Of a stretch of DNA of 64,000 bases, positions 4,725-53,887 are shown piece after piece. Position 1 is the stretch's first letter. Each line of letters begins with the position of its first letter. The notes beneath the pieces are model-generated. The model saw only the letters and a list, made by a program, of their open reading frames with translations, had not been told where the DNA came from and made no database searches. This DNA comes from Longimicrobiales bacterium (GTDB taxonomy: Bacteria > Gemmatimonadota > Gemmatimonadetes > Longimicrobiales > Gaopeijiaceae): contig OZ250165.1 in the NCBI GenBank assembly GCA_965238005.1, forward strand, positions 704,001 through 768,000, given 5' to 3'. Both the position numbers and the translations under genes were made by a program.

Positions 4725-5885
4725 CTACGCGTGTCGACGCTCGCCAGCCAGGTAGCCCGCCCACTGCTCCATCAGGATGCGGCGGCGCTCGAACAGGTCG
4801 GAGCGGGCGTAGGCGGCCTCCACCCTGTTGCGGACCGCGTGGGCCAGCGCCGCCTCCATGACCGCGTGCGGCGCGTCGGTGCGCTCCGCCGTCCAGTCCC
4901 GGAAGCTGGACCGGAAGCCGTGCGGCACGGCCGCGATCCCGAGCGCCTTGAGCAGGCCCGCGAACTCGAAGCTCGGCAGCACCAGCCCCCGCGCGGACGG
5001 GAACACCCACTCCGAACGAGGCGCGTGCGCCTTCGCCTCGGCCAGGATCTCCCGCGCCCGCGCCGACAGCGGCACCCGGTGCTCCCGCCGGCTCTTCATC
5101 CGCTCCGCCGGGATCGTCCACACTCCGCCCTCCAGGTCGACCTCCTCCCAGCGAGCCCCACGCACCTCGCCCGACCGGCAGGCCGTCAGCACCAGAAACT
5201 CGAAGCCCAGCTGCACCGTCACCCTTGCCTCGGATCGCTGGATCGCGTCAATCGCCCCGGCCACTTCCCGGTAGGGCAGCGCCTTGTAGTGCTTCTGGAC
5301 GCGCGGAGGCCTCGGCAGCGCGGCGCCGATCGCATCGCCCGCGGGGTTGTCCACGCGGTAGCCCTGCGCGATCGCCCACCGCATCACCGTCGAAATCCGC
5401 TGACGGACCCGCTTGGCCGTCTGGTGCTTCCCGTTCCAGACCGGAAGCAGCACCCCCATGACGTCGGCGGACGCGATCCGGTCCACCCGCTTCCCCCCGA
5501 TCCCGGGAAACGCATAGGTGCGCAGCGTCGCCATCCACTGGCCCGCGTGCCTGTCGGTCCAGGTCGGACGGTGCATGGCGAAGACCTTGGCCGCCGCCCG
5601 CTCGAACGTCGGCACTGAACTGTGCCGCTTCGTCCTCGGATCGCCGCCCGCGCGGGCCACCTTGCGGTTGGCCAGCGCCGTGTCCCGCGCCTCGGCCAGC
5701 GTCACGAGGCGGACCGAACCGAGCCCCAACTCCCTGCGCTTGCCGTGAATGAACAGCCGCTGGCTCCACTGCTTGTAGCCGGACGGCTTGACCCGTAGCA
5801 CGAGGCCGTGCTCGTCCCAATACAGCCCCGGTTCCCGGACGCTCCGCACGAAGGCGGCAGTGAGTTTCTTGGCGTGTCTGCCCAT
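4725..5885 (-). CDS. P4-type tyrosine integrase (int1) with arm-binding domain
   Basis: N-terminal KLTAAFV..GLxLRV..RRELGLG; catalytic motifs RSGEVR, HGFRSSFRDW, LAH, AAY all intact. Confidence 0.95.
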   Translation of the reverse strand: MGRHAKKLTAAFVRSVREPGLYWDEHGLVLRVKPSGYKQWSQRLFIHGKRRELGLGSVRLVTLAEARDTALANRKVARAGGDPRTKRHSSVPTFERAAAKVFAMHRPTWTDRHAGQWMATLRTYAFPGIGGKRVDRIASADVMGVLLPVWNGKHQTAKRVRQRISTVMRWAIAQGYRVDNPAGDAIGAALPRPPRVQKHYKALPYREVAGAIDAIQRSEARVTVQLGFEFLVLTACRSGEVRGARWEEVDLEGGVWTIPAERMKSRREHRVPLSARAREILAEAKAHAPRSEWVFPSARGLVLPSFEFAGLLKALGIAAVPHGFRSSFRDWTAERTDAPHAVMEAALAHAVRNRVEAAYARSDLFERRRILMEQWAGYLAGERRHA

Positions 5886-6045
5886 CTGGTCACCCTTTTG
5901 CGATCACCCCGTGGATCACCCTTTAGGTCTTGGAATATAGCGGCCTTCCTGAGATGGCAATATAACATAAGTATATCCCCTACAACAACTTCACTTGTCT
6001 TATGGGACTTCCTGGAACCTAGATGGACAGTGCGTAGAAGGAGTA
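5886..6045. other. att-like end of the int1 element
   Basis: Three TCACCC direct repeats (5890, 5904, 5916), an AT-rich stretch, then an abrupt join to virD4 coding sequence at ~6041. Confidence 0.7.
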
Positions 6046-6577
6046 CCAGGCGTTCGCGACCGTCGGCCAGGACGATCCCTCGGGCGACGAGAAGGCGTTC
6101 GCGCTCACGCGGCAGTGCCGCTGCGTCCCGATCGTCGCCACGCAGTCGATCTCCTCGCTCCGCTCCGTGCTGCCCGGAGGCGAGGCCTGGCGCACGCTCC
6201 TCCAGACGCTCCGCACCCGGATCTTCCTGTCGCTGTCCGACGAGTCGTCGGCCCGGATCGCGTCCGAGATGTGCGGCAGCGTCATGAAGACGCAGCCCTC
6301 CTACACGTTCACCGAGACCACGGGCAGGCCCGAGTTCTCGCTCTTGTCCGGGCGAGCCGGCGGGGGCCGCGGCACGATCGGCGCGAGCAAGTCGTTCCGG
6401 CAGCAGAGGGAGCCCGTGTTCACGCCGCGCGAGTTCGCGCTGTTGGCCAACTACCAGGCGATCTGTCTGCCCTACGACGGCACGAAGTCGCTCCCTGCCC
6501 GGCGCGTCTACCTGAAACCCCACTACCTGCCGAGGGACGTGGGCTACTGGCGGCTCCGCGAGGAGGGCCGGATATGA
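6041..6577 (+). pseudogene. virD4: 3' fragment of type IV coupling protein (VirD4/TraD-like)
   Basis: EYQAFATVGQDDPSGDEKAFALTRQCRCVPIVATQSISSL (Walker B remnant plus ATQS motif); no start; overlaps the virB11 start. Confidence 0.8.
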
Positions 6578-7581
6578 AGCGCGCAAGCGGGATCGCGCAC
6601 CTGAAGCCGTTCCTTCCGGGCCTGGAGACGCTCCTCGAGGACCCGGAGGTCTCCGAGATCATGATCAACGGACCCGGCAACGTCTGGATCGAGCGAGGCG
6701 GCCGACTCGAGCCCCACGAGGCGCCGGGACTCACCGCCGCCTGGCTCCACCGCGCCGCGATCCACATCGCGCGGCCGCTCGGCCTCGATCCCGCCGCCAG
6801 ACCCATCCTCGATGCCCGTCTCGATGACGGCTCAAGGGTCGCCATCTGCACGCCGCCCGCGAGTCCCGAGGTCGCCATCACCATACGCCGGTTCGGGGGC
6901 CGCGCGTTCTCGGCTCAGGACCTGGTGCGCATGGGCTCGCTGCCGGAGACGGTCCTCGGGGCCGCCCGGTCGGCCCTCTTGGCCCGCAGGAACATCCTGG
7001 TCTCCGGAGGCACGGGCTCGGGCAAGACGACGCTCCTCAACGCGCTGATCGAGTTGCTGCCCGAAGACGAGCGGATCGTCGCCATCGAGGACACGCTCGA
7101 ACTCAGGATCGAGCGCGCCAACTGCCTCCGCTTCGAGGCCGGCGCTGTCGGCACCGAGACCCCCGTCTCGATCCGCGACCTGGTGCGGCACGCGCTGCGC
7201 CACCGGCCCGACCACATCGTCGTCGGCGAGGTCAGGGGCGGCGAGGCCGCCGATCTGCTCCAGGCGCTCAAGACCGGCCACGGCGGCTCGCTCACCACCG
7301 TCCACGCGAACAACGCCCGCTCCGCGCTCTCGCGCCTCGCGAGCTGCGCCATGCAGGCCGAAGGCGCGCTTCCCTGGGAGGTCACCTGCCGGGGCGTCGT
7401 GGACGGGATCGCACTTGTGCTGCACACGGCCCGGCAACGGGGCAGGCGGTTCGTCGAGGAGGCGCTCGAAGTGCGCGGCTACGACGCGGCCAAGGGCCGC
7501 TGGATCGCCGAACCGATCCGGAGCGGGGCCGACGAAGCCCCGCAAGAACAGCACCCACACACCAAGGAGGTGAACCCATGA
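6574..7581 (+). CDS. virB11: VirB11/CpaF-like secretion ATPase
   Basis: EIMING, GGTGSGKTT, IEDTLEL, LRHRPDHIVVGEVRG, TGHGGSLTTVHA. Confidence 0.9.
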   Translation: MKRASGIAHLKPFLPGLETLLEDPEVSEIMINGPGNVWIERGGRLEPHEAPGLTAAWLHRAAIHIARPLGLDPAARPILDARLDDGSRVAICTPPASPEVAITIRRFGGRAFSAQDLVRMGSLPETVLGAARSALLARRNILVSGGTGSGKTTLLNALIELLPEDERIVAIEDTLELRIERANCLRFEAGAVGTETPVSIRDLVRHALRHRPDHIVVGEVRGGEAADLLQALKTGHGGSLTTVHANNARSALSRLASCAMQAEGALPWEVTCRGVVDGIALVLHTARQRGRRFVEEALEVRGYDAAKGRWIAEPIRSGADEAPQEQHPHTKEVNP

Positions 7582-7778
7582 AAGGCGACGAGAACATCGT
7601 TCGCGTCGAGACGCTCGATGACTTCGACCGGGAACTCGCGCGCGATGGAGGCGAGGCCCTCGAGGTGCCGGCCTCGCTGGCCGAAGAGTACGGCCTCTTC
7701 TCCGAGGACGTGGGCAGCGAGGACGAGATCCGCGACGCCGGAGAGGATCCGCACGGCCCCGAGGAGGAAGAGCTATGA
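7578..7778 (+). CDS. Small, highly acidic protein (66 aa)
   Basis: AGGAGG RBS; ATGA overlaps with both neighbours; 24 D/E versus 5 K/R. Confidence 0.75.
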   Translation: MKGDENIVRVETLDDFDRELARDGGEALEVPASLAEEYGLFSEDVGSEDEIRDAGEDPHGPEEEEL

Positions 7779-8803
7779 AACACGACGAATACCACCGCCA
7801 GTTCGCCGAGGGGATCATCGAGCAGATCCGCCAGGGCACCGCGCCGTGGCAGAAGCCCTGGGGGCCGGGCGAGCGCGTGCTCCCCTCCAACGTCGATACG
7901 GGCCGCTCCTACAGGGGCGGGAACAGCCTCCATCTCGCCGCCGTGGCCCAGGAGCGCGGCTACGGCGACGTGCGCTGGGGCACCTACCGCCAGATCCAGG
8001 CCCGGGACGGACAGGTCCGCAAGGGCGAGCAGGGCACTCGCATCCTCTCGTTCCAGGACCACCGGAAGATCGCCGTCACCGACGAGCGCGGTCGGCCCAA
8101 GAGGGACAACGAAGGCAAGCGCGTCTACCGCCACGAGCGCCTGCCCACGCCCGTCGTCCGGCAGTACACCGTCTTCAACGCCGAGCAGGCCGACGGGCTG
8201 CCCGCGCGGCCCGCGCCCGCTGCCGAGCCGCTCTGGAAGGCCCACCAGCAGGCCGAACGCGTCCTCGAGGACAGCGGGGTGCCCGTCCGTCACGTGGCGG
8301 GCGACCGGGCGTTCTACAACCTGAACCGCGACGAGATCGTGCTCCCCGAGCGTGGACAGTTCCCCTCCGCGAACCACTACTACCAGACCGCGCTGCACGA
8401 GCTGGGGCACAGCACCGGCCACCCGGAGCGCATGAACCGCGAGACGCTCACCCAAGGGATCTCTGAAGGGTTCGGGTCGCCGGCCTACGCGAAGGAGGAG
8501 CTACGCGCCGAAATCAGTGCCATGATGACGGGCGAGCGCGTGGGCGTCGGCCATGACCCGAGCCGGGGCGCCGCGTACGTCGAGGGCTGGATCGCCGCAC
8601 TCGAGGAGGACCCCCGCGAGATCCGCCGCGCCGCCGCCGACTCGCAGAAGATCTCCGACTTCGTGCTCTCGCGGCACCGCGAGCGCGAGGCCGTGCGCGA
8701 ACCCGCGGCCGTGGCCGCGACCCGCGCGCCCGCGCCGGGGCAGATCGTCCATCCCGTGCCGCCGCTCCCCGTGCCGCAGCGGACCTTCGGACCGCGCCGC
8801 TGA
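7775..8803 (+). CDS. ardC: ArdC-like antirestriction protein (ssDNA-binding plus zincin-like domain)
   Basis: APWQKPW..YRGGN..WGTYRQ..GQVRKGE..YTVFN; LHELGHSTGH..YAKEELRAE. Confidence 0.9.
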   Translation: MKHDEYHRQFAEGIIEQIRQGTAPWQKPWGPGERVLPSNVDTGRSYRGGNSLHLAAVAQERGYGDVRWGTYRQIQARDGQVRKGEQGTRILSFQDHRKIAVTDERGRPKRDNEGKRVYRHERLPTPVVRQYTVFNAEQADGLPARPAPAAEPLWKAHQQAERVLEDSGVPVRHVAGDRAFYNLNRDEIVLPERGQFPSANHYYQTALHELGHSTGHPERMNRETLTQGISEGFGSPAYAKEELRAEISAMMTGERVGVGHDPSRGAAYVEGWIAALEEDPREIRRAAADSQKISDFVLSRHREREAVREPAAVAATRAPAPGQIVHPVPPLPVPQRTFGPRR

Positions 8804-8809
8804 CGGTCG

Positions 8810-9712
8810 GTGAGGAGCCAGAAGATGTTCGACCGCACGGTCGAACCGGACCCGCGGACCGCCGCGCCACCCAGCCGCAATCGCTACCGCATGCGGGACG
8901 GCCACCGCCGAGAATACGCCGCGAGCCGGGACCGCGGGTCCACCTCCTTCCCCGAACGGTGCGCGCGCGGGCTCGCCGACATCGGCGTCTACGGCGCCGT
9001 CTCGTACCGCGATCTCGCCGAGACCCGCTTCGGGGGCCATCCCTACACCACCCGGCGGGCCGTGAACGCCTGGATACGGGACGGGCTCGTCACCGAGACC
9101 ACGGCCACCGGACCCAAGGGCAACCCGTTCAAGGTCCTGACGCTCACCCGCAGCGGCGTGGCCGAAGCTCGGAAGCGGGCCGCCGAACGGGGAATGGATC
9201 CCAGCCAGGAAATCCGGTTCGCACGCACCCGGCCTGCGCAAGCCGCGCACGACACCGCCGTCTACCGCGCCTGCATGAAGGAGAAACAGCGCCTGCTCGA
9301 CCGGGGCGCAGCAGTGCGGCGCATCCGGCTCGACACCGAACTCAAGAGCGCCGTCGCGCGCGGGAGCGAGGCGGCGCGGCTGAAGGACGGCAAGCGGGCC
9401 GCCGATGCCGAACGGCACCGCACCGCCAGCGAACTCGGACTCCCGGTCGACGACGAAGGGCACGTGCTCTACCCGGACGCCCAGATCGAGTACACCGACG
9501 CCGAGGGGCGAACTGGACGCGTCAACATCGAGGTCGCGTCCGGCAACTACCGCGAAGGGGCCATCAAGGCGAAAGCGGCGGCCGGGTTCGCGCTCCACGC
9601 CAACGGACCGGCCGCGGCGCGGCTGCTGCGCACGCTCAGCCTGGGCGGCGGCGGCGACCGCTCCTCGCTGCGGGGACCCGCCGACCGCGATCCGGCCGCA
9701 GTCGAACTCTGA
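8810..9712 (+). CDS. Putative relaxase of the replication-relaxation (Replic_Relax / MOBC-like) type
   Basis: wHTH-like N-terminal half; AHDTAVY; YPDAQIEY...VNIEVASGNY PD-(D/E)xK-like core; located in a conjugation operon; no HUH relaxase seen elsewhere. Confidence 0.6.
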   Translation: MRSQKMFDRTVEPDPRTAAPPSRNRYRMRDGHRREYAASRDRGSTSFPERCARGLADIGVYGAVSYRDLAETRFGGHPYTTRRAVNAWIRDGLVTETTATGPKGNPFKVLTLTRSGVAEARKRAAERGMDPSQEIRFARTRPAQAAHDTAVYRACMKEKQRLLDRGAAVRRIRLDTELKSAVARGSEAARLKDGKRAADAERHRTASELGLPVDDEGHVLYPDAQIEYTDAEGRTGRVNIEVASGNYREGAIKAKAAAGFALHANGPAAARLLRTLSLGGGGDRSSLRGPADRDPAAVEL

Positions 9713-9730
9713 CTACGGGAGAAGCCCGCC

Positions 9731-10045
9731 ATGCAACCCTGGAAAATCAGCGCCGGCCTCACCGCCGCCATCGCGGGGTCTGCCGTGCTGCTCGCCGGGC
9801 CGCGCCTCGAATACCTCGCGCCGTATTGGCCGCTCCTCCTCGCCGAACACGGCGTCTTGCTCGCCCTGCACCTGGCGCTCGCACTCGCAGCCGTTGCGGC
9901 CGCCATCTACGCCGTCGCACGCGCCGCCGGGCTCGCCGACCTCGGCCGGCGCGTCGATCTCGCCGAGCGCTCCGTTCGGCGCGGCGAGGGGGACCCGGCC
10001 CTCACCGACGCGCTCCGCAGAGACGCCGAGGGCGACTGGGAATGA
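9731..10045 (+). CDS. Small membrane protein
   Basis: GGAGA RBS; two hydrophobic segments; ATGA overlap with the next gene. Confidence 0.7.
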   Translation: MQPWKISAGLTAAIAGSAVLLAGPRLEYLAPYWPLLLAEHGVLLALHLALALAAVAAAIYAVARAAGLADLGRRVDLAERSVRRGEGDPALTDALRRDAEGDWE

Positions 10046-10488
10046 ACGCGGAGACCGGGCGGGCGGCGGGCCGGCGAGATCGACCCAAACGTGCGCGCAC
10101 ACCTCGCGGCGCGTCCGTCGAGACCCTGCCAGTCACCTGGCGGACGCAGGCCAAGGCGCTCCGCCGGTACGGGGGCGAAGCTCCGGCCGTCGCGATCGAA
10201 AGCTGCGCGGCCGAGCTCGAGGCCACGCTCAGGGAGAGGGACGAGACCACCTTCTCGCTGACGGAGGCAGCCAGGGAGAGCGGCTACTCCGCTGACCATC
10301 TCGGCCGCCTCGTGCGCGACGGCAGGATCCCCAACGCCGGAAGGCCCGGCGCGCCCAGGATCGCCCGCTCGCACCTGCCACGGAAGACCCAGGCGCCAGC
10401 CACACCGCTACTGGTGGAAAAGCATCGCCGAGGCGAAGTTTCCAACGCGCAGATCGTGCAGTCCATCATCGAGAGAGGAATCGAATGA
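10042..10488 (+). CDS. Excisionase-like HTH protein
   Basis: FSLTEAARESGYSADHLGRLVRDGRIP (HTH_17/Xis-like); directly upstream of and overlapping the integrase. Confidence 0.7.
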   Translation: MNAETGRAAGRRDRPKRARTPRGASVETLPVTWRTQAKALRRYGGEAPAVAIESCAAELEATLRERDETTFSLTEAARESGYSADHLGRLVRDGRIPNAGRPGAPRIARSHLPRKTQAPATPLLVEKHRRGEVSNAQIVQSIIERGIE

Positions 10489-11648
10489 TGGCACGCACGA
10501 AACCTATCCGGCGCTCCTACGGCGCCGGCGAATGGGGCCGGAACCGGGTACGGGTCTTTCCCGATCCCAAGACCGGCGTGTTCCAGATCGAGTGGCGCGA
10601 GAACGGGCGCAGGCTCACAAGGTCGCTGAAGCACCGCGACTGGAGACGGGCGAAGCGGCAGGCGGACGAGTTCGCCGCTGGCTACCTCGGGCCGGAGCTC
10701 CACCGCAAGGCCGAAGCCGAGCCCGAGCCGCTCACCCTGGAGACGCTTTTTGACATCTACGGTGAAGAGGTGACGCCCACCAAGCGTGGGCGGTCGCGGC
10801 TGCACGACAGGGCCGCGATGAGGATGTTCCTCGGGTGCTTCGGCAGGGACCGGAAGCCCGCAACGCTCTCCCAGCGCGACTGGGACCGGTTCATCCGGGA
10901 GCGGCGCGCGGGCAGGGTCGGACCGAGCGGCAAACCCGTGTCCGACCGGATGATCGAACGGGACCTGAAGTTCCTGCTCGCGGTCCTCAACTGGGCCGTG
11001 AAGTCGAGGGACGAGCGGGGCGAACTGCTCCTCGGCTCGAACCCGCTCAAGGGCCTGAAGACGCCCACGGAGAAGAACCCGACACGGGTGATGCTTACCG
11101 AGGAAGAATACCGGGTCCTGCTCCACGTGTCTCTGGAGATGGACTGGCGCTTTCACGTTGCTCTGGTCCTCGCACACGAGACAGGACACCGCATCGGCGC
11201 CATCCGTCAGCTTCGATGGTCGGACATCGACCTTGAATGCGGAGTGGTGCGGTGGCGCGCAGAGCACGACAAGTCGGGCTACGAGCACCGGACGCCGGTC
11301 ACCGCCGAGGCGCTCGCCGCCTTGGAGGAGGCGCGAAAGAGGAATCCCGGTATCGGGGACGCGCCCGTGCTGCCCTCGCCTTGGGATCGCTCGAGGTGCG
11401 TGAGCTGTTCCTGGACGCAGCGCTGGTGGGAGAAGGCCGTAGCGCTCGCAGGGCTGGAATCCAAGCGTGGCCGCGGCTGGCACTCCCTAAGGCGGAAGTT
11501 CGCCTCCGACCTCATGGACCAGCCGCTCAAAGTGCTCTGCGAACTCGGCGGTTGGAAGGAGGCCAAGACGGTGCTGCACTGCTACCAGCGGGCCGATGAG
11601 GCACAGCTCAGGAAGGCTCTGGAGAGCCGTCGCAGAGTTCGCGCCTGA
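10485..11648 (+). CDS. Tyrosine integrase of the ICE
   Basis: ETGHRIGAI, HSLRR, LGGW and LHCY catalytic pattern. Confidence 0.9.
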   Translation: MMARTKPIRRSYGAGEWGRNRVRVFPDPKTGVFQIEWRENGRRLTRSLKHRDWRRAKRQADEFAAGYLGPELHRKAEAEPEPLTLETLFDIYGEEVTPTKRGRSRLHDRAAMRMFLGCFGRDRKPATLSQRDWDRFIRERRAGRVGPSGKPVSDRMIERDLKFLLAVLNWAVKSRDERGELLLGSNPLKGLKTPTEKNPTRVMLTEEEYRVLLHVSLEMDWRFHVALVLAHETGHRIGAIRQLRWSDIDLECGVVRWRAEHDKSGYEHRTPVTAEALAALEEARKRNPGIGDAPVLPSPWDRSRCVSCSWTQRWWEKAVALAGLESKRGRGWHSLRRKFASDLMDQPLKVLCELGGWKEAKTVLHCYQRADEAQLRKALESRRRVRA

Positions 11649-11652
11649 GACC

Positions 11653-11730
11653 AATCAGCGGGAATCAATCGGCGGGAATCCGGTCCGGTATGCCCGTAAG
11701 TTCAATTACCCCAAGCAGATGTGAACCTGT
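11653..11730. other. ICE att end with arm-type tandem repeat
   Basis: AATCAGCGGGAATC-AATCGGCGGGAATC (11653-11680), then a junction into the truncated int2. Confidence 0.65.
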
Positions 11731-12532
11731 CGGCTTCTGCCCACTCGGCCCCCCGCACCTCACCCCATCGTGCCGCCGTCAGCACCAGGAACTCGAACGC
11801 CAGCCGGACGGCCAGCGGCACCGTTGATGCCCGCGCGGTCTGGATGGCCGCGGCCACCTCTCGATGCGGCAGCGCCCGCATGTGCTGCACGACGTCACGC
11901 TGGGGACCCAGGACCGGCCCGATCCGGTCGCACGGGTTGTCGATCCGGAACTCCATCGCCACCGCCCACTCCAACACCGCGCGGATGCGCTGCCGCAACC
12001 GCCGGGCGGTGTCCGCCTTCGTGTGCCAGATGGGAGCGAGGATCTCCAGCACGTCGGCGCTAGTGACCTCCGAGACCGGCATCTTCCCGATGCGCGGAAA
12101 GGCGTACCGCTCGAAGGTCAAGATCCAGTCGCGGCCGTGCGCCCGATTTCGCCAGCCGGCTTGCTTCTGTTCCACCACACGCGCGGTGGCTTCGGCGAAG
12201 CTCGGTACGCCCTGCCTACGACGCTTCTCGGCAAGCGGGTCGCCGCCCTCGCGGGCCAGCTTACGGTTGGCCAGCGCCTTTTCCCGGGCCTCGGCGAGGG
12301 AGACCAGCGCAACGCTGCCGAGCCCGAGCTCGCGGCGCCGACCCCGGATGACCAGGCGCTGAATCCAGCTTCGGGTTCCGCTCGGCTGGACGAAGAGGTA
12401 CAACCCGTTGCCGTCCGCGTGTCTTCCAGGCGGGGCAGTGCGCACGAAGGCGGCCGACAGGGCCTTGTCGGGATGGCGGCCCTTGGGCTTGGTTTTCCGG
12501 GGCGGAGTGGCCTTGTTCGTTCCAGTAATCAT
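11702..12532 (-). pseudogene. P4-type tyrosine integrase (int2), 3' truncated
   Basis: Arm-binding and core domains present to RWGEVRGAEW; HxxR and catalytic Tyr missing. Confidence 0.9.
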
Positions 12533-12685
12533 CCCCGCATAATATAGGGGATGGAGGCGGATATCAATGGATGTTGTGATCGGAGTGCGTTGCTAGTCGA
12601 TGCTCGTAACTTACTGTTATCACAGTCATTTATGGACTTAACTGGACGATACTGCACACCGTTCCAGATAGTCTGCCCATTCCTG
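12533..12685. other. att-like end of the int2 element
   Basis: AT-rich with IHF-like TAACTTACTGTTA; abuts truncated IS3 orfB at ~12683. Confidence 0.55.
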
Positions 12686-13098
12686 GGTCGTGCGTGGCTG
12701 CCCGAGCACCCGGCACGCTCTCCTCTCCGACGCCCCGAGCTGCTGACGTACACGCACCACACAACGTCGTCGGCGCTCGGGGCTCAGAAGTTTCCCTTGG
12801 CCGCTTCCTCCAGGATCAGCTTGTCCAGTGTCAAGTCCGACCCGGATCGCTTCAGGCGCCCGTTCTCGCGCTCGAGCTCCTTCAGGCGCCGTGCCTGGCT
12901 CACCTTCATCCCGCCGAGCTCCCGGCTGATCAGCTTCACGGATTTGCCGCGGGCCAGACCCACCTCTGCCTCCCGCAGTGCAGTGATGATCTGCTCCGGA
13001 GTGTGTCGCTTCCTTCCCATCCTGACCTCCTCGCTGAAAAGCTTCAGGCCAGGTCGATCCTAACATTGCACCTGGTCTCGTTTCAGCGGGTCAGGTCA
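12683..13098 (-). mobile_element. IS3-family remnant (IRL, internally deleted orfA, start of orfB)
   Basis: IR TGACCTGACC..GAAACGAGACCAGG ends at 13098; orfA MGRKRHTPEQII..LKELERENGRLK; GGGAAAC frameshift window; orfB LLSPERRRRCV..SERRACRVLG cut at ~12683. Confidence 0.85.
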
Positions 13099-39015: not shown

Positions 39016-39041
39016 TTAGCACCTACAAACTATTGGATCTC

Positions 39042-43653: not shown

Positions 43654-43759
43654 ACCTGAAAGCTAGCGCGTAGGGGCCACCCGGTGTCAACCCCTTCGAC
43701 CCCCTCTCGGATTTCAAACTGACCCACTACCTTGCCGTACGCCATCTTGACACATGGCT

Positions 43760-44045
43760 ATTGCCGTCCGATCATCCACGGCTCGTCGTTCCAGGCGTTG
43801 AAGATCGGCCTGCCGCTGCCGGTCGCCCTCTCCAGCGCACGGCGGTTCGCTCCGCCCCGGATGGAGTTGGTCGCGACCAGGCCGACCCGCTTCGCGGCCG
43901 CCTGAGTCCGCTCTGGATATCGCCGCACACTTCCTTGAGCAACCGGACATCCCCCTGGAGAATGGCCTACTCGATCCGGGCGATCTCCAGCTGACCTCCG
44001 CGTCGAACTCCGAAGGGCGGGTTCTCGAGCCCAGTTGTCAAGCAT
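43760..44045 (-). pseudogene. Fused remnants of a MIAHL-family gene (43920-44045) and a restriction-methylase (43760-43905)
   Basis: DNA similarity to 29820-29940; AKRVGLVATNSIRGGANRRAL..AWNDEPW is typical of MmeI-like methylases. Confidence 0.65.
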
Positions 44046-44173
44046 CGTCCGTTGCCGATGCCGGGAGCGATGTCTTCACGGGACGGCACGCGTGGCGATT
44101 GTCTCGCAGTGAGGTATGCCGCAAGCGAGCGCGGGACATCGATGCCACGGCACGACCGAACAGTAGCGAGCCG

Positions 44174-47100: not shown

Positions 47101-49462
47101 TCCAGAGGCTCACAAGATCTGCAAACGCGAACTCGAGGTCGAGATCATCGTATACCAAGTCCAGCTTCTGGACGTTGTCGGCGGGTTGTCCGTCGACCAG
47201 AACATCTTTCTTAAGATAGGTTCGTCCCTTGAGTGCTTTTGGCGTGACCAATCCAAGTAACTTCCACTTGCCACCGGCCTGGAGATGTTTGGCCGCGGCC
47301 GCCGCATCCGACCGCACTTTCCGAGGATCGAGCCCTTCGGGGCGGGTCACGACTCGATTGCCGAGACTACGCAACAGAGGCTCAATCTGCTCGATGCGCT
47401 GCCTGCTGAGCTTGAGCAGCGCACGCCACTTTGCGGTGCGACCTACGACCACCTCTCGAAGCGCTGTGCCCAACCACTCAGCCTCAACACCATGGAGAGC
47501 GCGCCGTCGCTCCTCGATGCTCCTGAGATCGTCGGCTAGATTATTTCTCTCGTCGGTCGACAAAGCGCGAATCGGCGAGAAGGCTGGGTGCGGTCGGAGC
47601 GCGTCCACCTGCTCGGTGCTGCGCGTTCGTGCTGTAGCCTCTTTCGAGACGATGCCCCCGAAGTCCGCCGGAGCAGTGAGAGTGGCACTGTCCGGGATCT
47701 GGAGTGTCGAGGCCGCGACCTCCTCGTCCGAGTACCGCCTGCGAATCTCCAGCCATCTGGCTGCCTCGGCATTCGAGATCGTCGGATGATTCGTCGCATC
47801 CCGTGCCAACCGGAGCCACCCAAAGATCTCGCGCTCGGCGGCGACCCGGGCTGCGATATTCGAGGCCGTGCCTTCGTATGTGCCATCGAGCAGCGGATGT
47901 GAGAGCGTCTCGTATTCGCGCAGGCTTCGGATCTCCGAGTCGATCCTGGCGAGACGCCTCCGGGCCTCGTCGATCTCACGATCGATCTCGACGATCCTGT
48001 CATCATATGAGCCCGGGGAGTATGAGGCTTGCCGGTTTGTGATTCCCTGCACGGCGGTGTTAAGCTCCGCGAATGCGTCTCCGCCGTGCCCAAGCAAGCT
48101 GACGCACAAGGGTTGGATTTCCTTAGGGAGCATGCGCTTGAGAACCTGGAGGGCGCGCCCCGTCTCCGCCGTGATGAGTACTCGCTTCCCCGTGGCGAGC
48201 AGGTGGCACATGAGGTTCGCGATGGTGTGGCTCTTGCCGGTGCCGGGTGGACCCTGAACCAGCACTCCTTGATTGCAGTCGATCGCATCGACGATACGCC
48301 GCTGCTCGCGGTTGGCCGGCAACGGGAAATAGGCCTCTGACGGTGACGGCGTGCTCCCACTATGCGTTCCATCGTGGCCATGGTGCCCCGAAGGCTTCCC
48401 ACCTCCATCTCCCCAGTCGTCATCAGTCAGCTCGCCCCAGCCGCGGGGCACTTCGCCTTCTTCGTCCTCAAGGTTCTGGATCAGTTTCTCGTAGATGCGG
48501 ACCATGCCAGTCTGGAGGCGTTTGCGAAGGATCAGTGCCGGCGCGAAGCTCATGACTGGGTCATTTCCAGTTGACGGCTTGGCGCTGAGTCCCTCGGACC
48601 AGACCGTGTCGGGGCTTAGTGCCCCCGCCCAGGTCTTGAGCGGAGCATGGATGAGCGACTTGTCCCAGATCGCGTCACCCACCTCCTCAAGCTGCGCTTC
48701 GACCACGTCATAGTTTGATCGATCAGGTCGGAGTTCGGCCTCGAGCATGTCGTCTTCGACACGCAGGTTCGCCCCTTCACCGGGGGCGCCTACGCGAATG
48801 ACGCCCCTGCCTGGGTCAAAGGTCAACTCGACCTGCCCGACCACCGCGTGCCGGCGAATCGGAATCGACTTATTACCGCTCTTAGCTCGCCAGTCCATCA
48901 GGCCTAGCCCGAGGACGACCTCGACGATCTCGCTCTGCTTTTGCAACTGCGAATAAAGACTGAAGAGCTTCGCATAGATGTTCTGCACCGCCTCGCGACG
49001 GCGATGGTCGGCTGCCCAGGCTTCCCACTTCGGCCGGAAGGCCCGATACGCCTCGACGACTTCGGGGTAGTCCTCCAGTGGTCGCTCGACGAGCGGCGGT
49101 GTCTCGCCCTCCTCCAGATCGAGTTCGGTATCTTCCTCGAGGATGCTCGGGCGCAGTGGCGTAATACTCGGAGTAGCCCTGCGGAGGACCTCTGCGTCGA
49201 CCCATTTCGCGATCATGTCGGGTGGCTCTGGCGGCCTCTCGAACTCCTGCTTGCGGACCTCGAGCCAGGGCTCTTCCAGATCGTAGTCGTCGGTCCAGGC
49301 ACCACTGTGGCAGTCCGCGTCTTGCGGCATCTCGTCGAACCAGAGCACAGAATCGTACTTGGCTACATCGCGAACGGTCGTACTGCGAAGACCAACGAAC
49401 TCTTTCAAGTACCGCGCGAGTCGCAGCGCGGGACTCTCGATGTTGTTACTGTCCGTGCTCAA
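44174..49462 (-). CDS. Large SF1 (DNA2/UPF1-like) helicase fused to a Vsr/DUF559-like nuclease and a wHTH-like tail
   Basis: QGPPGTGKSHTIAN, IVDEASQ, VGDDQQ, LREHFRC, FQGDER, RFNVAVSRA; FDSKFE..YRIDLVV..AVECDG..H..D..RQRDLE..GW; TTG start at 49462 inferred. Confidence 0.88.
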   Translation of the reverse strand: MSTDSNNIESPALRLARYLKEFVGLRSTTVRDVAKYDSVLWFDEMPQDADCHSGAWTDDYDLEEPWLEVRKQEFERPPEPPDMIAKWVDAEVLRRATPSITPLRPSILEEDTELDLEEGETPPLVERPLEDYPEVVEAYRAFRPKWEAWAADHRRREAVQNIYAKLFSLYSQLQKQSEIVEVVLGLGLMDWRAKSGNKSIPIRRHAVVGQVELTFDPGRGVIRVGAPGEGANLRVEDDMLEAELRPDRSNYDVVEAQLEEVGDAIWDKSLIHAPLKTWAGALSPDTVWSEGLSAKPSTGNDPVMSFAPALILRKRLQTGMVRIYEKLIQNLEDEEGEVPRGWGELTDDDWGDGGGKPSGHHGHDGTHSGSTPSPSEAYFPLPANREQRRIVDAIDCNQGVLVQGPPGTGKSHTIANLMCHLLATGKRVLITAETGRALQVLKRMLPKEIQPLCVSLLGHGGDAFAELNTAVQGITNRQASYSPGSYDDRIVEIDREIDEARRRLARIDSEIRSLREYETLSHPLLDGTYEGTASNIAARVAAEREIFGWLRLARDATNHPTISNAEAARWLEIRRRYSDEEVAASTLQIPDSATLTAPADFGGIVSKEATARTRSTEQVDALRPHPAFSPIRALSTDERNNLADDLRSIEERRRALHGVEAEWLGTALREVVVGRTAKWRALLKLSRQRIEQIEPLLRSLGNRVVTRPEGLDPRKVRSDAAAAAKHLQAGGKWKLLGLVTPKALKGRTYLKKDVLVDGQPADNVQKLDLVYDDLDLEFAFADLVSLWKDIGVTDTLADRRFCLLDLKPQVSALADVLEYGDACTHAAQNMSGKSPPVPTPNWLDGEALRWVDLIVGAGIDEELDEAERQVAACGQPLARLRGLHDVHPVVDSLLEAIAARDVTAYSQCHEHVVAIERARVAQSERARIETAIRLAAPSLVEEVEASLNEPVWDDRLSHWEEAWRWAWADGWLKKRSDFNYQQELWRRRHEAEVSKSGRVAKAASLRAWKDFFKRLSPRERNALKGWREAVRAMGKATGKSARIARLRREARNYMDDCRKAIPIWIMPRYLVAEMIDPSPGLYDLVIVDEASQLGIESLFLFYISKKIIVVGDDQQISPAGVGIPDADVAALQQHFLDGVPHKVALYPQSSVYGNAKIRFNQNIVLREHFRCMPEIIQFSNDLCYASNGTPLDPLRAYPASRLQPLVRRHVPDGYRRGKADHAQNPPEAEAIVEQICACIDDPRYAGKTMGAISLQGEAQAKLIENMLLQALDPEVVVERRLICGDAYAFQGDERNVIFLSLVAAPGEHRIGVLANEAARQRFNVAVSRAQDQLWLFHTAELDLLSDKCMRHSLLSYMLDPGRKRTDPEEQRFDSKFERHVYQRVTERGFHVRTQVCVGDPANHRYRIDLVVEGMQGRLAVECDGDEWHGPDRYEQDVARQRDLERAGWQFARIRGSDFYRDREKAMEPVWAELDRLGIRPGGIDDSAAAPPRPKSRGPERRTEADLDKPSDGQPPSPELIEVVPTVTRSPDEASPTPTHGTDPKPAAPEAMDEPQEEPEPTSYPENRPLPTNRDPVTPVPIRAVPYVAFEGPAGPDPRHSTPAQVAEGLCRIIDTEGPMLAKRSYNLYLRGIGIARMGGELKRSMNRALQHAIRKGRVAKEDESGTGGLVYSIVRITGTPATVLRERGPRTFNEIPQSELQLMARQLSQDEGFESGSDDHLRAVLESLGLKRLTAQLRLRFRDVLGARDRDVDDILGGGKPQ

Positions 49463-49844
49463 GCTGCGGCTCCGTAGACCTGATGCTGATGGATCTAGCT
49501 CTAGTGGTAGTGAGTGTCCCCGCCCATCCCGGTTTCGCTCTGCAGCTGAACCACCATAGCGTGAAGGGGCGGAGAGCTCATCTGAGGGTACGGTGGAACT
49601 GGAGGCCGGGGTACCATCTATCGATGGCCGAACACATTCCGTGCCAGATTCTGACCAAAATCTAATACACTTGACTGGAGGAGGCATCGGGGGGGCTCGC
49701 GACTTGGCTGATCTCCCGTTGGAGCGTGGGGCCGGGGCTGGAATCCGACCAAAGGCAGCCAGCGGCAGCGCTGATGCCGACAGGGGTTGGTGCCGCGCGC
49801 GCGAGTAACCGCTCTTGGGACGTCGTCTGGTTGGCCCATCGGTA

Positions 49845-49941
49845 CACCGACCTGTTCGGGCGCCGACACCGGGCCATGGACGACCGGGCAGCCTACTTGG
49901 CCGGTGAGCGTCGAGACCCGGAGGCCGGTCCGGTTCGTTGA
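49845..49941 (+). pseudogene. C-terminal remnant of a P4-type integrase
   Basis: TDLFGRRHRAMDDRAAYLAGERRDPEAGPVR* resembles the int3/int4 tails. Confidence 0.75.
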
Positions 49942-50783
49942 TCCGCCGCGCTCCCGGCGGCGTTCGCCGTTATTCGGTCACTCAGTTCGTCGAGGAACCC
50001 GGACAGGGTCAGGCCGAATGCACCAGCGAACCTGGTCGCCGCATCGACAGTCAGGCGCACTTCCTTTTTCTCCAATCGCCGCACATGCCTCTCTGATAGC
50101 CCCGGAATCTCTGTCTGCTTCAGCCGCCGATCATTTCTCATGTCAAGTAGGACCAGTGACATTTTCTCCATCTGGTACCGGCGAATTTCCACATCAGCCA
50201 GATACATGGGATCCACGGCCTGTAGCATCTGAGACGCACCCATATGTACATTCTGGTCAGGCCAATACAAATAGGAACCGGCCGAATCAATCACGAACTG
50301 GCTGAGCACTGCTGGCTCAAACCCTCTTACTTTCGGCAGTTGACTGATCGGAAACTTCCGTGCGCTCATGTCTCCAAGGACGGCAACGAGAGACTCCTCA
50401 ATGACATATGCGTCGAGGATGCCCTCCCACGGAGCCGGTCTCGTAAGCGCGATGACCAGACGTTTCACAACCGAAGGATCCCGGCACACTTGCAGCCGCT
50501 GATCCGGCTTATGAAGTCGAAGTGTCGAGGCGAGTCGAAGTATCGCCTGCTCCGGCACGTCTAAGACAACCAGGTAGCGTGTCTCCGTATCCACCCACTT
50601 CGGCAACCTGACTCGCTCCGGACCCATTAGCTCACTTGCTTGAGCCACGACCAGGCTCTGCTCTGTTCCAGTGTGGGGCGTCGTAGATAGCTGTCTCGCC
50701 AGAGAGCGAAACTCGGCGTCGGGCAAGCAATCTTCCACCGTCCCGCAAAAGGCAATGTGGCTGAATGGATTTGCGTCACTCAT
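49893..50783 (-). CDS. Extended DUF2442-like plus XRE-HTH protein (putative antitoxin/regulator)
   Basis: ILDAYV..LVAVLGD..FPISQLP..GSYLYWPD; LKQTEIPGLSERHVRRLE; ATGA coupling to the DUF4160 gene. Confidence 0.7.
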   Translation of the reverse strand: MSDANPFSHIAFCGTVEDCLPDAEFRSLARQLSTTPHTGTEQSLVVAQASELMGPERVRLPKWVDTETRYLVVLDVPEQAILRLASTLRLHKPDQRLQVCRDPSVVKRLVIALTRPAPWEGILDAYVIEESLVAVLGDMSARKFPISQLPKVRGFEPAVLSQFVIDSAGSYLYWPDQNVHMGASQMLQAVDPMYLADVEIRRYQMEKMSLVLLDMRNDRRLKQTEIPGLSERHVRRLEKKEVRLTVDAATRFAGAFGLTLSGFLDELSDRITANAAGSAADQRTGPASGSRRSPAK

Positions 50784-51037
50784 TCGCTCTGACTCCGCTC
50801 CCATTCTGCGAACAATTCCGCGCGGTGCGCAGCGGCCAGCTCCAAGATTTCCCTCACCTTGCTCGTGGAAACGTGTCTCACTTCAAACTTCACGTCATAC
50901 TGCGGAGGCTCCTGTAGGAAGTACACACGAATCTCCCACGCGTCCACGACTCCTGCGTGAAAGTGCGGCGGTCCGTGGTCACCAGTATGAAACCAAAATC
51001 GACACCCAGTTAGTTCAAACGCCTGAAGCAGCCCCAA
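50780..51037 (-). CDS. DUF4160-family protein (putative toxin)
   Basis: GCRFWFHTGDHGPPHFHA..ELFAEW. Confidence 0.8.
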   Translation of the reverse strand: MGLLQAFELTGCRFWFHTGDHGPPHFHAGVVDAWEIRVYFLQEPPQYDVKFEVRHVSTSKVREILELAAAHRAELFAEWERSQSE

Positions 51038-51065
51038 GAGCTACCTCCAGGTGAACGCGACAGCT

Positions 51066-51293
51066 TCACCCTTCCGGTGGGTAGGAATCGCGGCCATATG
51101 TGTTCTTCTCCCGAATTTTCCCATCACGTCCATGGATCAACAGCTCAGACCGTTGATTCTTCGCGATGGAGCGCGCCTTCTTGATGGCTTCCTGTTGCGT
51201 GTCAAATACTTTTGTTGCTTTCCGACTACCTGCACCCTTGACGGCCCATCCATCCTTGGCTGGGACAACGTGCTGGTTACGCTTCTTGGCCAT
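51066..51293 (-). CDS. DUF2188-family protein
   Basis: QHVVP..GWAVKG..TQQEAI..AR..IHGRDGKIRE..YG.D.YPP. Confidence 0.9.
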   Translation of the reverse strand: MAKKRNQHVVPAKDGWAVKGAGSRKATKVFDTQQEAIKKARSIAKNQRSELLIHGRDGKIREKNTYGRDSYPPEG

Positions 51294-51709
51294 GTGGTCT
51301 CCCTCCTCTACGCCTTATGCCGGACACGCAAATAGAGTAACCGCTATATTATGTCCGATCAAGGCATCAGAGGGCCTGCTGGGTCACCATCGTGCGGACC
51401 TCCGCACGTGTCTCACAGTGGAAAGTCGCTCTTGCAGCCTCATTCAAGACTGCTACCTCGGTTCGCAGCTCGTGTCGGCCAGAAACTCTGGCCACTGCTC
51501 GCCTGCTTCGCCATGTAGCGCCTCGACCCAGCTCCCCGGAGGGTGGTCTTGAAGGCCGACCGAGGAAGGTCCATGCCGATCAGGAGGCGCACTTCAGACA
51601 CTGAGGCGCATGTGCACCGGAGGGCTGTTTCCGGATGTGGTTGGTGTGACTTAAGTTACGGGATACCAGCACGAGCGGCCGGCCGTCTCTGATGGTCTCG
51701 GGGCAAAAC

Positions 51710-51801
51710 GGGAGCGACCCCCGATCTCGGCATGCCTCGATCGGCATCGGGGAGGGACGGCATGTGCACGCCATGCCACCCTCCCCGACGGGGTCGCTCC
51801 C
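51710..51801 (+). repeat. Structured non-coding module type 2, copy C
   Basis: GGGAGCGACCCC...GGGGTCGCTCCC; the next ~70 nt resemble 30334-30404. Confidence 0.8.
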
Positions 51802-51952
51802 GATCCATCAGTCCCTTACGGGAAGGCCACCGAGCGCCGCTGAGAGCGCGGCGGATCAACGGGCCGATCCGGCGATCAGCCGTCAGCGCACCGGCAGGGG
51901 GGCGGGGGGCGAGCCCCCGCCCGCGAGCTCCGCCGCAGTGCGGGCGTCCTTC

Positions 51953-52040
51953 GGGATCGAAGGGGCGGAGCCCCTCGCCAGCCCCTTTGTGGGTACAAAG
52001 GGTATGCTGGCTCATGACAGGTAACGGGTCATGAGCCAGC
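51953..52040 (+). repeat. Structured non-coding module type 1, copy 4
   Basis: GGGGCGGAGCCCC, CCCTTTGTGGGTACAAAGGG, and perfect GCTGGCTCATGAC-N9-GTCATGAGCCAGC (52006-52040). Confidence 0.9.
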
Positions 52041-52043
52041 GCC

Positions 52044-53228
52044 TCAGCGGACCGGTTTGGCCTCCGGTTCTCGACGCTCGCCGACGAGATACGCGCCCCA
52101 AGCCTCCATGACCTCGCGCCTCCGGTCTAGCAGGTCGGAACGGGCGTAGGCGGCCTCGACCTTGTTCTTCACGACATGGGCCAGCGCCGCTTCGGCCACC
52201 TCGCGCGCCACGCCCGTCTCCGAGCACCAGTCGCGGAACGAGGACCTCATCCCGTGGGGCGTTCCCTCGATGGAGAGACACCGGAGCAGGCCGCTGAACA
52301 TCGAGGCGTTGATTCTTCCTCCCTTCGCGCCCCGGAACACGAGCCCGCCGCCGTCGTGGCGCTTCCGGGCTTCCTCAAGGATCTCCAAGGCCCGCCTCGA
52401 CAGGGGAACTCGGTGCTCGCGCTTCGCCTTCATGCGGCTGGCGGGAATGGTCCAGACATCGTGCTCGATCTCATCCCACGTCGCGCCCCGGACCTCGTTC
52501 GAGCGTGTCGCGGTCAGGACCATGAACTCGAGCGCCAGCCGGACACCGGCATGGGATCCCGAGTCGCGGACCTCGGCCAGCGCCGCCGACACCTCGCCAT
52601 GCGGGAGCGCCTTGTGATGTCTGGTGGCGTTGCCGTTGCGCGGCAGCGCGGCGGCGATGGCGTCCCCCGCCGGGTTGTCCGGCCGGTAGCCCTTCGCGAC
52701 GGCCCACTTCATCACCGCGCCGATCCGCTGGTGCACGGCCCTCGCGGTCGCGGGCTTGCTTGACCAGATGGGCTGTAGGATCGCGAGCACGTCGGCCGTC
52801 GCGACCTCGCTCACGCGTTTGCGGCCGATGCGCGGATGGGCGTAGTCCCTCAGCGTCTGCCGCCACTGTCCGGCGATGCAGGAAGGGCTCTTCCAGGTCG
52901 GCGAATGGATCGCGATCACCTTCTCGACGGCCGCCTCGAAGGTGGGAACCCCCACGGCTCTCGGGTCGTGGCCCCAATGGAGCGCGCGCCTGTTCTCAAG
53001 CGCCTTCTCCCTCGCCTCCTTGAGCGTCACGACCGGATACGAGCCCAGTCCGAGATTGGTGGGCTTCCCTCCCGCTCGAACGCGCTGGCCCCAGGACTTG
53101 GAGACGCGCCCGGACTTCATTCGGTGGACGCGGAGGTACAGCCCGAGTCCGCCGCGCCCCCCGTCGCCGTAGCGTCCCGGCGTCGTCACCCGTGCCACGA
53201 AGGCAGCCGTAAGCGGTCGTTTACGCAT
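52044..53228 (-). CDS. P4-type tyrosine integrase (int4)
   Basis: Intact RSNEVR, HGMR, LAH and AAY motifs. Confidence 0.95.
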   Translation of the reverse strand: MRKRPLTAAFVARVTTPGRYGDGGRGGLGLYLRVHRMKSGRVSKSWGQRVRAGGKPTNLGLGSYPVVTLKEAREKALENRRALHWGHDPRAVGVPTFEAAVEKVIAIHSPTWKSPSCIAGQWRQTLRDYAHPRIGRKRVSEVATADVLAILQPIWSSKPATARAVHQRIGAVMKWAVAKGYRPDNPAGDAIAAALPRNGNATRHHKALPHGEVSAALAEVRDSGSHAGVRLALEFMVLTATRSNEVRGATWDEIEHDVWTIPASRMKAKREHRVPLSRRALEILEEARKRHDGGGLVFRGAKGGRINASMFSGLLRCLSIEGTPHGMRSSFRDWCSETGVAREVAEAALAHVVKNKVEAAYARSDLLDRRREVMEAWGAYLVGERREPEAKPVR

Positions 53229-53404
53229 GGAGTGTGTCCTACTTGTGTATCACATTCTGACGGATACACCATGGTACAACACGGTACGACTCGGCACAAG
53301 AGGGAGCCTGCGAACACGGCCAAGACACGCCGTATCATGTTGTAATCAAGTATCTTGTGGAATCCTACGGGACAGCCTGAGACGATGTGCACGATCCTAC
53401 TGCG

Positions 53405-53887
53405 TTACTTGAGCGGGAAGTAACGCCGCGTGTTCCCGGCGGCTCCCCGGTAGAGCCGGCTGGGCAGGTGCCGGCGCTCGATGTCGAGCGCCTCGAACGC
53501 ACGGACTTTCTCTTTCTCGGTCGGGAGCCACGGCAAGCCGGGGTGTTCGAGTACGTAGTCGAGTGAGAGGAGGCGCCGCAGGAGCACTTCCTCCGAACCG
53601 GTCCGGCGGTGGCGGATGTCCTCGGCGCCTAGCGCCCGGTAGATCCTGCGTCCGAAGATCCGGCAGACCTTCCGCCGCTCGAGTGTGTCCTCGGCCGCGA
53701 GCCCCCTCTCGAGCAGGGCCCGGACGAACCGAAGCGCCTGCCAGCGATCGATCCGGAGATAGGCGGAGATCTGGGCGCGGGTGAACACGCCGCTGTGCAG
53801 ACAGGCCAGCGCGATCCACTCGGCCTGGCGTCCCGTCCAACCGAACGGCTCGAGGGCCTGTTCGCGTCCCTGCAGATGCGCGATCAC
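53405..53887 (-). pseudogene. 5' half of the split MIAHL-family ICE gene
   Basis: MIAHLQGREQALEPFGW..RRYFPLK*; stop created by the element end; GTGA overlap with virB8. Confidence 0.9.

Follow-up and report, generated by a model that had tools for sequence, protein, structure and literature searches.

Islands that carry P4-type integrases classically sit at tRNA or tmRNA genes, and the tyrosine-recombinase elements CTnDOT, NBU1 and Tn916 insert at several sites with a common short consensus. Published work describes dusA-specific integrases as P4-type relatives that target a protein gene (PMC4482086), secondary attachment (att) sites for NBU1 and SGI1 (PMC5704250), and gene-interrupting prophages and other elements that act as switches (cited in PMC5357655). 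The closest known case to the one reported here is that of the streptococcal integrative mobilisable elements (IMEs), found also in clostridia, which according to two papers (PMC5357655, PMC5704250) use serine integrases to enter fixed internal sites in traG (VirD4), maff2 and snf2 of Tn5252-type integrative and conjugative elements (ICEs), disrupting the gene. As given there, traG hosts two different internal sites and an ICE may hold up to three elements, integrase families correlate with target genes, and 12 of 16 serine-integrase IMEs target ICE genes; the elements are proposed to excise when the ICE conjugates, or to reintegrate into a resident ICE, and an ICE disabled by its passenger is also discussed (PMC5357655, PMC5704250). 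Here we describe four P4-type integrase genes, int1 to int4, in a 64-kb stretch (genome positions 704001-768000, hereafter the window) of the 4.84-Mb single-contig genome, with 64.8% GC, of a Longimicrobiales bacterium (Gemmatimonadota). Probably the four are the integrase-proximal ends of islands inserted by conservative site-specific recombination inside conserved coding sequences of other mobile elements. The main target class is formed by genes of resident conjugative elements (virD4, virB4, virB11, a VirB8-domain gene, a conserved ICE gene called geneX here, and the ICE recombinase), and the second by transposase genes of the insertion sequence (IS) family IS3.

Like the IMEs of Tn5252-type ICEs, these islands are inserted site-specifically within a conserved ICE gene, the coupling-protein gene included, and the gene is disrupted. 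IMEs have a serine integrase, mobilisation or replication modules, and hosts among streptococci and clostridia, whereas here the integrase is a P4-type tyrosine recombinase with an arm-binding domain, relaxase and replication genes were not recognised, defence genes are among the cargo and the host belongs to the Longimicrobiales. New features are the class of recombinase, the phylum, how many lineages and sites take part, the ATPase motifs that are hit, the defence cargo and the evidence that insertion into divergent ICEs is aimed and ongoing. A literature search with little coverage of subscription journals found no account of P4-type or other tyrosine integrases targeting virD4, virB4 or virB11, nor of such elements in Gemmatimonadota.

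Pfam detects four P4-type integrases in the window, all on the minus strand. The domains Arm-DNA-bind_3, Phage_int_M and Phage_integrase score above the Pfam cut-offs in int1, int3 and int4, in which the C-terminal tyrosine lies inside AAYARSDL and the Pfam catalytic domain is covered over positions 3-169 of 172; the HxxR box gave no match in these three with the simple pattern used. The NCBIfam model PRK09692 matched the integrases with E values of 2e-43 and 6e-32, under its curated cut-off. Int3 and Int4 are 88.6% identical to each other and Int1 is about 54% identical to both. Between the integrase start and the broken gene lies an arm of 148-179 bp with a GC content of 0.47-0.51, the next 200 bp having 0.67-0.72, and the int3 and int4 loci are homologous over 1507 bp (87.9% identity), up to precisely 36627 and 53411. 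An earlier note on this DNA had reported such low-GC, att-like ends upstream of all four integrases, each adjoining a broken gene (virD4 3' part, IS3 orfB, virD4 5' part and geneX, its 'MIAHL gene') at 6041, 12683, 36624 and 53408, with no tRNA or tmRNA 3' end visible at any of them. These observations are confirmed: the junction cores were found within a few bases of those positions (Table 1), and ARAGORN detected no tRNA or tmRNA gene in the window.

Two of the four islands can be followed to both ends. int4 lies in an island of 15,505 bp, because the other half of its geneX stands at 37462-37915, intact geneX paralogues align straight over the insertion point and so bridge the gap, and the 13-bp direct repeat CTTGAGCGGGAAG is present at both ends. 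The int1 island is bordered by virD4 codons 255-533 (genome 701317-702165) and 529-707 (710038-710574), with the 9-bp direct repeat GAGTACCAG at both junctions, and a further island, i876229, has the same 9-bp repeat at both of its ends. GAGTACCAG encodes E-Y-Q of the Walker-B-like hhhhDE motif of virD4, which we take to be Walker B; the site encodes CDEYQ and falls at the start positions of the TraG-D_C profile. The 528-aa open reading frame (ORF) at 5995-7581 is not one gene and comprises the virD4 3' end (6038-6574, in another frame) followed by virB11 (6571-7581).

A tblastn search found 23 integrase paralogues in this genome, which form clades A to E and two outliers in a tree. An ICE gene lies 146-202 bp upstream of the integrase start in 14 of the 23. 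Of the copies at virD4, three have their junction near codon 529, three some 25 bp ahead of the ATG, one at codon 215 and one at codon 282; the other ICE junctions are in virB11 (codon 240), virB4 (codons 267 and 746), the VirB8-domain gene, geneX and the ICE recombinase; residue numbers from the 'virB8' reference, which was cut out of frame, are nominal, and the location in the VirB8-domain gene holds. The virB11 site encodes NTGHGGS, presumably the His box. Because ICE genes cover just 2.08% of the genome, the preference for them is far above chance even allowing for co-duplicated copies (binomial P 2e-18; P 6e-6 with six independent events), which bears out the earlier suggestion that ICE conjugation genes are the targets. 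Three further copies, int2 among them, adjoin the same IS3 orfB position, and one copy adjoins a tRNA-Val gene. Two congeners have 19 and 17 copies and a genome of another genus has three; over these four genomes, which were picked because they hold the integrase family, an ICE reference gene is adjoined in 23 of 62 copies, with two more ambiguous (14/23, 2/19, 7/17 and 0/3 per genome). Flanks without an ICE match have as their nearest ORF, by Pfam, an IS3 transposase, a P4-type integrase, an MmeI-type methyltransferase, a solute symporter or others. A tRNA gene occurs within 2.4 kb upstream of one of the 62 integrases, and in none of 20 clade A and none of 29 clade B1 flanks; among distant relatives (46-61% identity) five of 40 have one within 1.5 kb. 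Of 314 genomes of the family, 77 have a relative of Int1 at E <= 1e-70, and these belong to 12 of 81 genera. The distinct sites in use number at least ten, in at least six ICE genes plus IS3.

Within a lineage the same positions are used again and again. Among 29 clade B1 loci from 19 assemblies, nine are in virD4 codons ~208-218, 12 in geneX at codon ~199 and two in the ICE recombinase, while six have no ICE match; with int3 and int4, both of this clade, the counts become ten for virD4 and 13 for geneX, so that 23 of 31 B1 copies stand at two sites. The six without an ICE match include one in the motif-I region of an MmeI-type methyltransferase gene (relative L088/L040, with an integrase 98% identical to Int3), two at a sequence encoding WIDFYN, which we take to be a transposase gene, and one whose flank is too short. 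The B1 sites have the form (T/G)ACTTC-N6/7-(C)AAG followed by TA, that is, half-sites ACTT and AAGT with a spacer of ~7 bp, giving a clade B1 core of ACTT-N7-AAGT; that of clade B2 is GTTC-N6-GAAC. In clade A, nine of 28 copies are at the virD4 hhhhDE site, five of them oriented opposite to virD4 (three in this genome, plus G328 and G317) and four in the same direction (L021, two in G124 and one in G067). Integrases from two other genera that are at least 96% identical to Int1 share its virD4 position. In a sublineage 88-89% identical to Int1, GAGTACCAG is again the site but in inverted orientation, centred on the palindromic GTAC, and further clade A sublineages are at other sites. The intact virD4 copies (three) have GAATACCAG where occupied copies have GAGTACCAG, a synonymous difference, and geneX copies without an insertion are 1-3 positions off the occupied core; on comparison of these sequences, both differences would be compatible with escape of the ICEs from insertion.

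The strongest evidence that insertion is aimed comes from a single assembly, in which three copies (L100, L101 and L109) have integrase DNA that is 100% identical over 1133-1150 nt and stand at the same geneX position, with ICE flanks only 73.6-75.1% identical. Since co-inheritance cannot give identical integrases in divergent flanks, these are recent, independent, site-aimed insertions. This argues directly against the idea of a small number of old insertions, inherited and duplicated together with the ICEs, whose integrases are now immobile. Near-identical flanks in duplicated ICE segments, such as those of int1 and i329244 or of i840836 and i2835687, would accord with that idea, as would the character of the region as a graveyard of ICE fragments, the cut-down int2 and the lack of an excision joint in short Logan contigs. 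It is nevertheless very unlikely, given also that 22 of the 23 paralogues are full-length open frames with a third-codon-position GC of 0.81-0.92, and that i2109970, whose integrase is 98.7% identical to Int1, lies in a glycine/tyrosine-rich non-ICE gene with its junction at the same core position. i2109970 fits a secondary-site insertion, even though its far end is lacking.

More weight attaches to the possibility, favoured by the earlier note, that fixed-site targeting has been lost and that these are transposon-like, integrase-only satellites whose insertions are merely tolerated in ICEs. Several results favour it: enzymes 97-98% identical to Int3 are found at four or more kinds of target (virD4, geneX, the MmeI-type methyltransferase motif and the transposase gene), clade B2 copies 96-98% identical to i2768535 have four different flanks, a tRNA gene is upstream of only one of 62 integrases, and the loose core is frequent enough that purifying selection against chromosomal insertions could shape the picture. 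The half-sites and their spacing are, however, common to all the alternative targets, GTTC-N6-GAAC being present at the four clade B2 flanks too; the same sites recur across the 19 assemblies; the identical integrases of L100, L101 and L109 share one nucleotide position in divergent ICE copies; and each of the six elements with both ends defined has cargo and a length of 4.2-15.5 kb. This reading is therefore improbable, and its claims of integrase-only satellites and of transposon-like targeting are not supported, each lineage reusing the same position with repeats of 9-13 bp and an inverted-repeat core. The outcome that the earlier note named as refuting it, insertion of homologues at one conserved site, is borne out in part, as each lineage has a few preferred conserved sites and not a single one. 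Overall the earlier interpretation is partly supported. Alternative sites with a short common core and occasional secondary-site insertions (here i2109970 and L088) are also known from elements of the CTnDOT, NBU1 and Tn916 type, from which the islands differ in that two sites dominate among B1 copies and direct repeats are 9-13 bp; they differ from relaxed-target tyrosine-recombinase transposons in that all alternative B1 sites share the ACTT...AAG(T) core.

The cargo over these islands comprises GmrSD-like HEC-05, type IIG restriction-modification, Uzume, PD-Lambda-4 and PIN genes, and all six delimited elements have direct repeats of 9-13 bp. One sister island of 4.2 kb has an HU-like gene and Uzume UzuA, and another, of 6.2 kb, is delimited in the same way in this genome; a third, of 5.1 kb (genome 2780555-2785643, L170), at virB4 codon ~746, has no recognised defence gene and encodes a protein of 801 aa in which the fibronectin type III repeat occurs five times. 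A clade D island of 10.0 kb, with a 13-bp overlap, carries a type IIG restriction-modification gene and a PD-Lambda-4-like gene. Clade D islands (genome 831010-841034, 2751378 and 2835877) insert about 25 bp before the virD4 start codon, which splits virD4 off its operon and leaves the gene itself unbroken. The far end of one further copy, of ~3.6 kb, is not identifiable. By tblastn, the HU/IHF-like gene of the int1 island matches the Bac_DNA_binding protein of i2109970, a sister element, at 97.7% identity. The upstream arms share a motif, RWCCMRTR, in 46 of 62 cases, as against one of 60 control segments and five of 62 shuffled arms, and 51 of its 56 occurrences fall in the 20-nt bins between -180 and -121, counted from the integrase start; as it was derived by eye and post hoc, it lends weak support to the presence of arm-type sites.

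With classical P4-type islands these elements share a three-domain integrase beside one end behind an arm, short direct repeats and cargo. They differ in that the target is not a tRNA gene and rebuilding of the interrupted gene is not indicated, geneX ending at the junction TAA and virD4 being cut at codon 215 or 529 of 707. They also differ from P4-like phage satellites, for a PHROGs search of 22 island ORFs gave no satellite gene category (no primase, capsid-size or helper-control category) and only families of unknown function, transposase and helicase families. As in gene-interrupting switches, a coding sequence holds an element with a conservative recombinase, and the gene could be restored if the element excised precisely, although regulated excision, as in such switches, is not evidenced here.

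The integrases and ICE genes are multi-copy, with a summed contig depth tens of times that of the island cargo, a setting in which assemblers err, and the junctions could in principle be chimeras between repeated integrase and ICE sequences. The same junction types nevertheless recur to the base in the 19 separately assembled records and in G328, G317, G124 and G067, and the split-gene halves and direct repeats fit exactly, so that an assembly artefact is barely credible. In the Logan joints listed (e.g. 37098>51937 and 38175>51812), the short side is 20-30 letters long and lies within integrase or ICE repeats, and none is at 37903/53420; they give support neither to the junctions nor to excision.

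Several results weigh against the interpretation of the integrases as the ends of site-specific islands aimed at mobile elements. Many of the copies in this genome lie inside duplicated ICE segments and are not independent, and in the congener G001 an ICE reference gene is adjoined by only two of the 19 integrases. With 122 matches to the loose B1 core ACTTY-N7-AAG across the genome, the core as read fails to explain the preference for ICE genes, to which selection or ascertainment may add. Together with the four target kinds of close Int3 relatives, this frequency implies that recognition is short, shifts readily from one lineage to another and allows for secondary sites. Neither the far end of the int3 element nor the remainder of its virD4 was found in the genome. 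For i2109970 no second repeat was found, and its homology to the int1 island ends 246 bp before the island end. No excisionase, relaxase or phage-satellite gene was recognised in the scanned island ORFs (Pfam, PHROGs) and no origin of transfer (oriT), which is beyond the reach of the methods used, so that we can only infer the route of transfer. Neither an excision product nor an empty-site read was seen in short Logan contigs from four runs over window positions 36000-55000.

The features of the window are collected in Table 1. The int3 core, CTTGTGGCAAAAG, has a single occurrence in the genome, and no virD4 piece begins near codon 215. int2 is a remnant, as it lacks the catalytic domain, and IS3 copies without an integrase align from window 12676-12683 to 13098. 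Its 3' end is cut ~55 bp past the stop codon of an ICE recombinase (window 11648-11702). About 2.7 kb left of the window (genome 701296-701320) the stop of an ICE tyrosine recombinase is followed within ~20 bp by codon ~275 of the next ICE's virD4, and from these two places ICE ends seem to adjoin broken genes of other elements. The relic at 38687-39012 in the int4 island looks like what is left of a previous B1-type insertion, or of an excision that was imprecise and took ICE DNA along. Around the integrases are ICE parts (VirB4, VirB6/TrbL, the VirB8-domain gene, VirB9, VirB10, VirB11, VirD4, an ArdC-like gene and a pilin-like gene), restriction genes, defence genes and several IS elements. 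We considered whether the P4-type integrases might be the ICEs' own and rejected this: the ICEs end in a distinct family of tyrosine recombinase, ~30% identical to Int1, with eight full copies. No ICE relaxase was recognised in Pfam and NCBIfam scans. geneX gave no match in Pfam (E 0.01), NCBIfam or PADLOC, and in Atlas matched hypothetical-protein clusters, with a weak lead to Replic_Relax (score 0.84). One ICE copy adjoins a tRNA-Ile gene.

Table 1. Features of the window, in window coordinates (aa, amino acids; T4SS, type IV secretion system).
Feature	Position	Strand	Remarks
int1 island, part in window	1..6036	-	whole island genome 702166-710037, ~7.9 kb; far end 1.8 kb left of window
HU/IHF-like DNA-binding gene, 3' end (int1 island cargo)	1..145	+	whole gene genome 703753-704145
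GmrSD-type nuclease (int1 island cargo)	915..2666	-	Pfam GmrSD_N + GmrSD_C; PADLOC HEC-05, E 4e-211
int1, P4-type tyrosine integrase, 386 aa, clade A	4725..5885	-	three Pfam domains; PRK09692
int1 integrase-proximal att arm	5886..6036	.	151 bp; GC 0.47; kept up to core among clade A copies
int1 core/junction	6037..6049	.	direct repeat GAGTACCAG at 6041-6049
virD4 coupling protein 3' fragment, codons 529-707	6038..6574	+	tblastn against intact 707-aa copy; TraG-D_C 33.7 bits; TrwB_AAD_bind
Remaining ICE: virB11, ArdC-like, three unnamed genes, own tyrosine recombinase (10485-11648)	6571..11648	+	
int2, cut-down P4-type integrase, 276 aa, clade E	11702..12532	-	first two Pfam domains only, without catalytic domain
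int2 integrase-proximal att arm	12533..12680	.	148 bp; GC 0.47; junction core at ~12680
IS3-family fragment with left end, orfA and initial orfB codons, interrupted by int2 element	12680..13098	-	HTH_Tnp_1 match
Intact geneX paralogue in another ICE fragment	29029..30078	+	reference for empty site
int3, P4-type integrase, 394 aa, clade B1	35260..36444	-	Pfam three domains
int3 integrase-proximal att arm	36445..36623	.	179 bp; GC 0.48
int3 core	36624..36636	.	reverse complement of CTTTTGCCACAAG; half-sites ACTT/AAGT, spacer ~7 bp
virD4 5' fragment, codons 2-215, including Walker A	36603..37247	-	
geneX 3' part, ~codons 183-345 of 349-aa conserved ICE gene	37462..37915	-	
int4 island, 15,505 bp	37916..53420	-	13-bp direct repeat CTTGAGCGGGAAG at 37903-37915 and 53408-53420 (int4 core)
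Relic in far end of int4 island	38687..39012	-	integrase-gene piece 38687-38844; geneX codons 158-190 at 38914-39012
GmrSD_N-domain protein (int4 island cargo)	39042..40940	-	Pfam
PIN-domain protein (int4 island cargo)	42926..43402	+	Pfam; ORF 42160-42933 before it unnamed
Helicase-nuclease, 1837 aa (int4 island cargo)	44174..49687	-	AAA_11/AAA_12 + REase_MTES_1575; PADLOC PDC-S37, Hhe-like
int4, P4-type integrase, 394 aa	52044..53228	-	Pfam three domains
int4 integrase-proximal att arm	53229..53407	.	179 bp; GC 0.51
geneX 5' part	53405..53887	-	stop is TAA supplied by junction
Upstream part of broken T4SS operon	53884..62232	-	VirB8/TrbF-like, VirB6/TrbL, VirB10, VirB9, VirB4, pilin-like, one unnamed gene

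Other mobile genes in the window include two IS256-like Mutator-family transposases between the islands (13467-14651 and 15241-16401), a DDE_Tnp_1 transposase (21271-22773) and, inside the int4 island, an IS1-like transposase (41218-42066). An MmeI-type type IIG restriction-methyltransferase at 25668-27766 consists of two overlapping ORFs, with positions 6-54 of 259 of the methyltransferase profile remaining. The ~130-150 bp just 3' of the int3 and int4 stop codons (35130-35261 and 51907-52045) recur inverted, with 72-83% identity, at 184-339 in the int1 island, adjoining the HU-like gene. Elsewhere in the genome ARAGORN calls two dense tRNA arrays (1035994-1037821 and 4451264-4453598) of 17 calls each, with one call in the first having an odd two-base anticodon. 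A distant integrase family, 30% identical to Int1 (genome 493072, 2736190 and 2750404), uses virD4 codon ~282, and two other virD4 copies have a matching far-end junction there, ...TAGATAGGTTG|CACCGGCTC. Clade B3 and the i857377 group adjoin one apparently non-coding sequence ending in ...GGCAAGTGCGGCAGATCGTGCAGTCCTGGTTGAAC (L065 at genome 853001-860000, L033, L028, L048-L050 and L057), for which Rfam gave no match at E 0.01 in the four loci searched. Two islands, L025 and L078, lie inside other P4-type integrase genes; one of these insertions removes the first ~35 residues of the arm domain and the other is at the last codons (...RRRRLMADW).

The sequences show that each island has its integrase 150-190 bp from one end, with an arm of lower GC in between, and that this end is a short core; insertion leaves direct repeats of 9-13 bp and a split target gene. 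Beyond this we propose the following course of events. The arm probably carries the arm-type sites for the N-terminal arm-binding domain, and clade A elements may bring an HU/IHF-like bending protein of their own. The role of tRNA genes could be taken by conserved coding motifs of the ICEs, for example the coupling protein's hhhhDE motif, since such motifs would be present in every ICE of a type, slowly evolving and dispensable to the host. Because insertion truncates the gene (in geneX, at the junction TAA), the ICE would be inactive while an island sits inside it, until excision. For their spread the islands might ride in ICEs to which intact copies supply mobilisation in trans, or might excise ahead of transfer; with at least eight ICE recombinase copies and three essentially full-length virD4 genes in this genome, broken ICEs could be mobilised in trans. 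A broader scheme can be offered only tentatively, as a possibility we hold short of probable: that a diversified guild of P4-type-integrase islands, numbering 17-23 copies in each of three genomes of the genus, has switched its attB from tRNA genes to the most conserved motifs of conjugation ATPases and of other mobile-element genes, that its members are hyperparasites which silence the ICE while integrated, travel with it or through it and bring anti-phage genes to the host, and that ICEs may escape by synonymous core changes such as GAATACCAG for GAGTACCAG.

The habit of entering the genes of ICEs was previously described for serine-integrase IMEs in Firmicutes, and is now found in a distant phylum with an integrase class best known for tRNA targeting. 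Since the islands break ICE operons, automated callers of ICEs and defence islands will mis-delimit both. The many lineages and sites form a natural series on shifts of tyrosine-integrase specificity, with examples in enzymes 88-98% identical acting on different cores and in the virD4 site used in both orientations around GTAC. Elements that land in the conserved genes of other mobile elements constitute a second layer of parasitism, one that can switch ICEs off and move defence genes.

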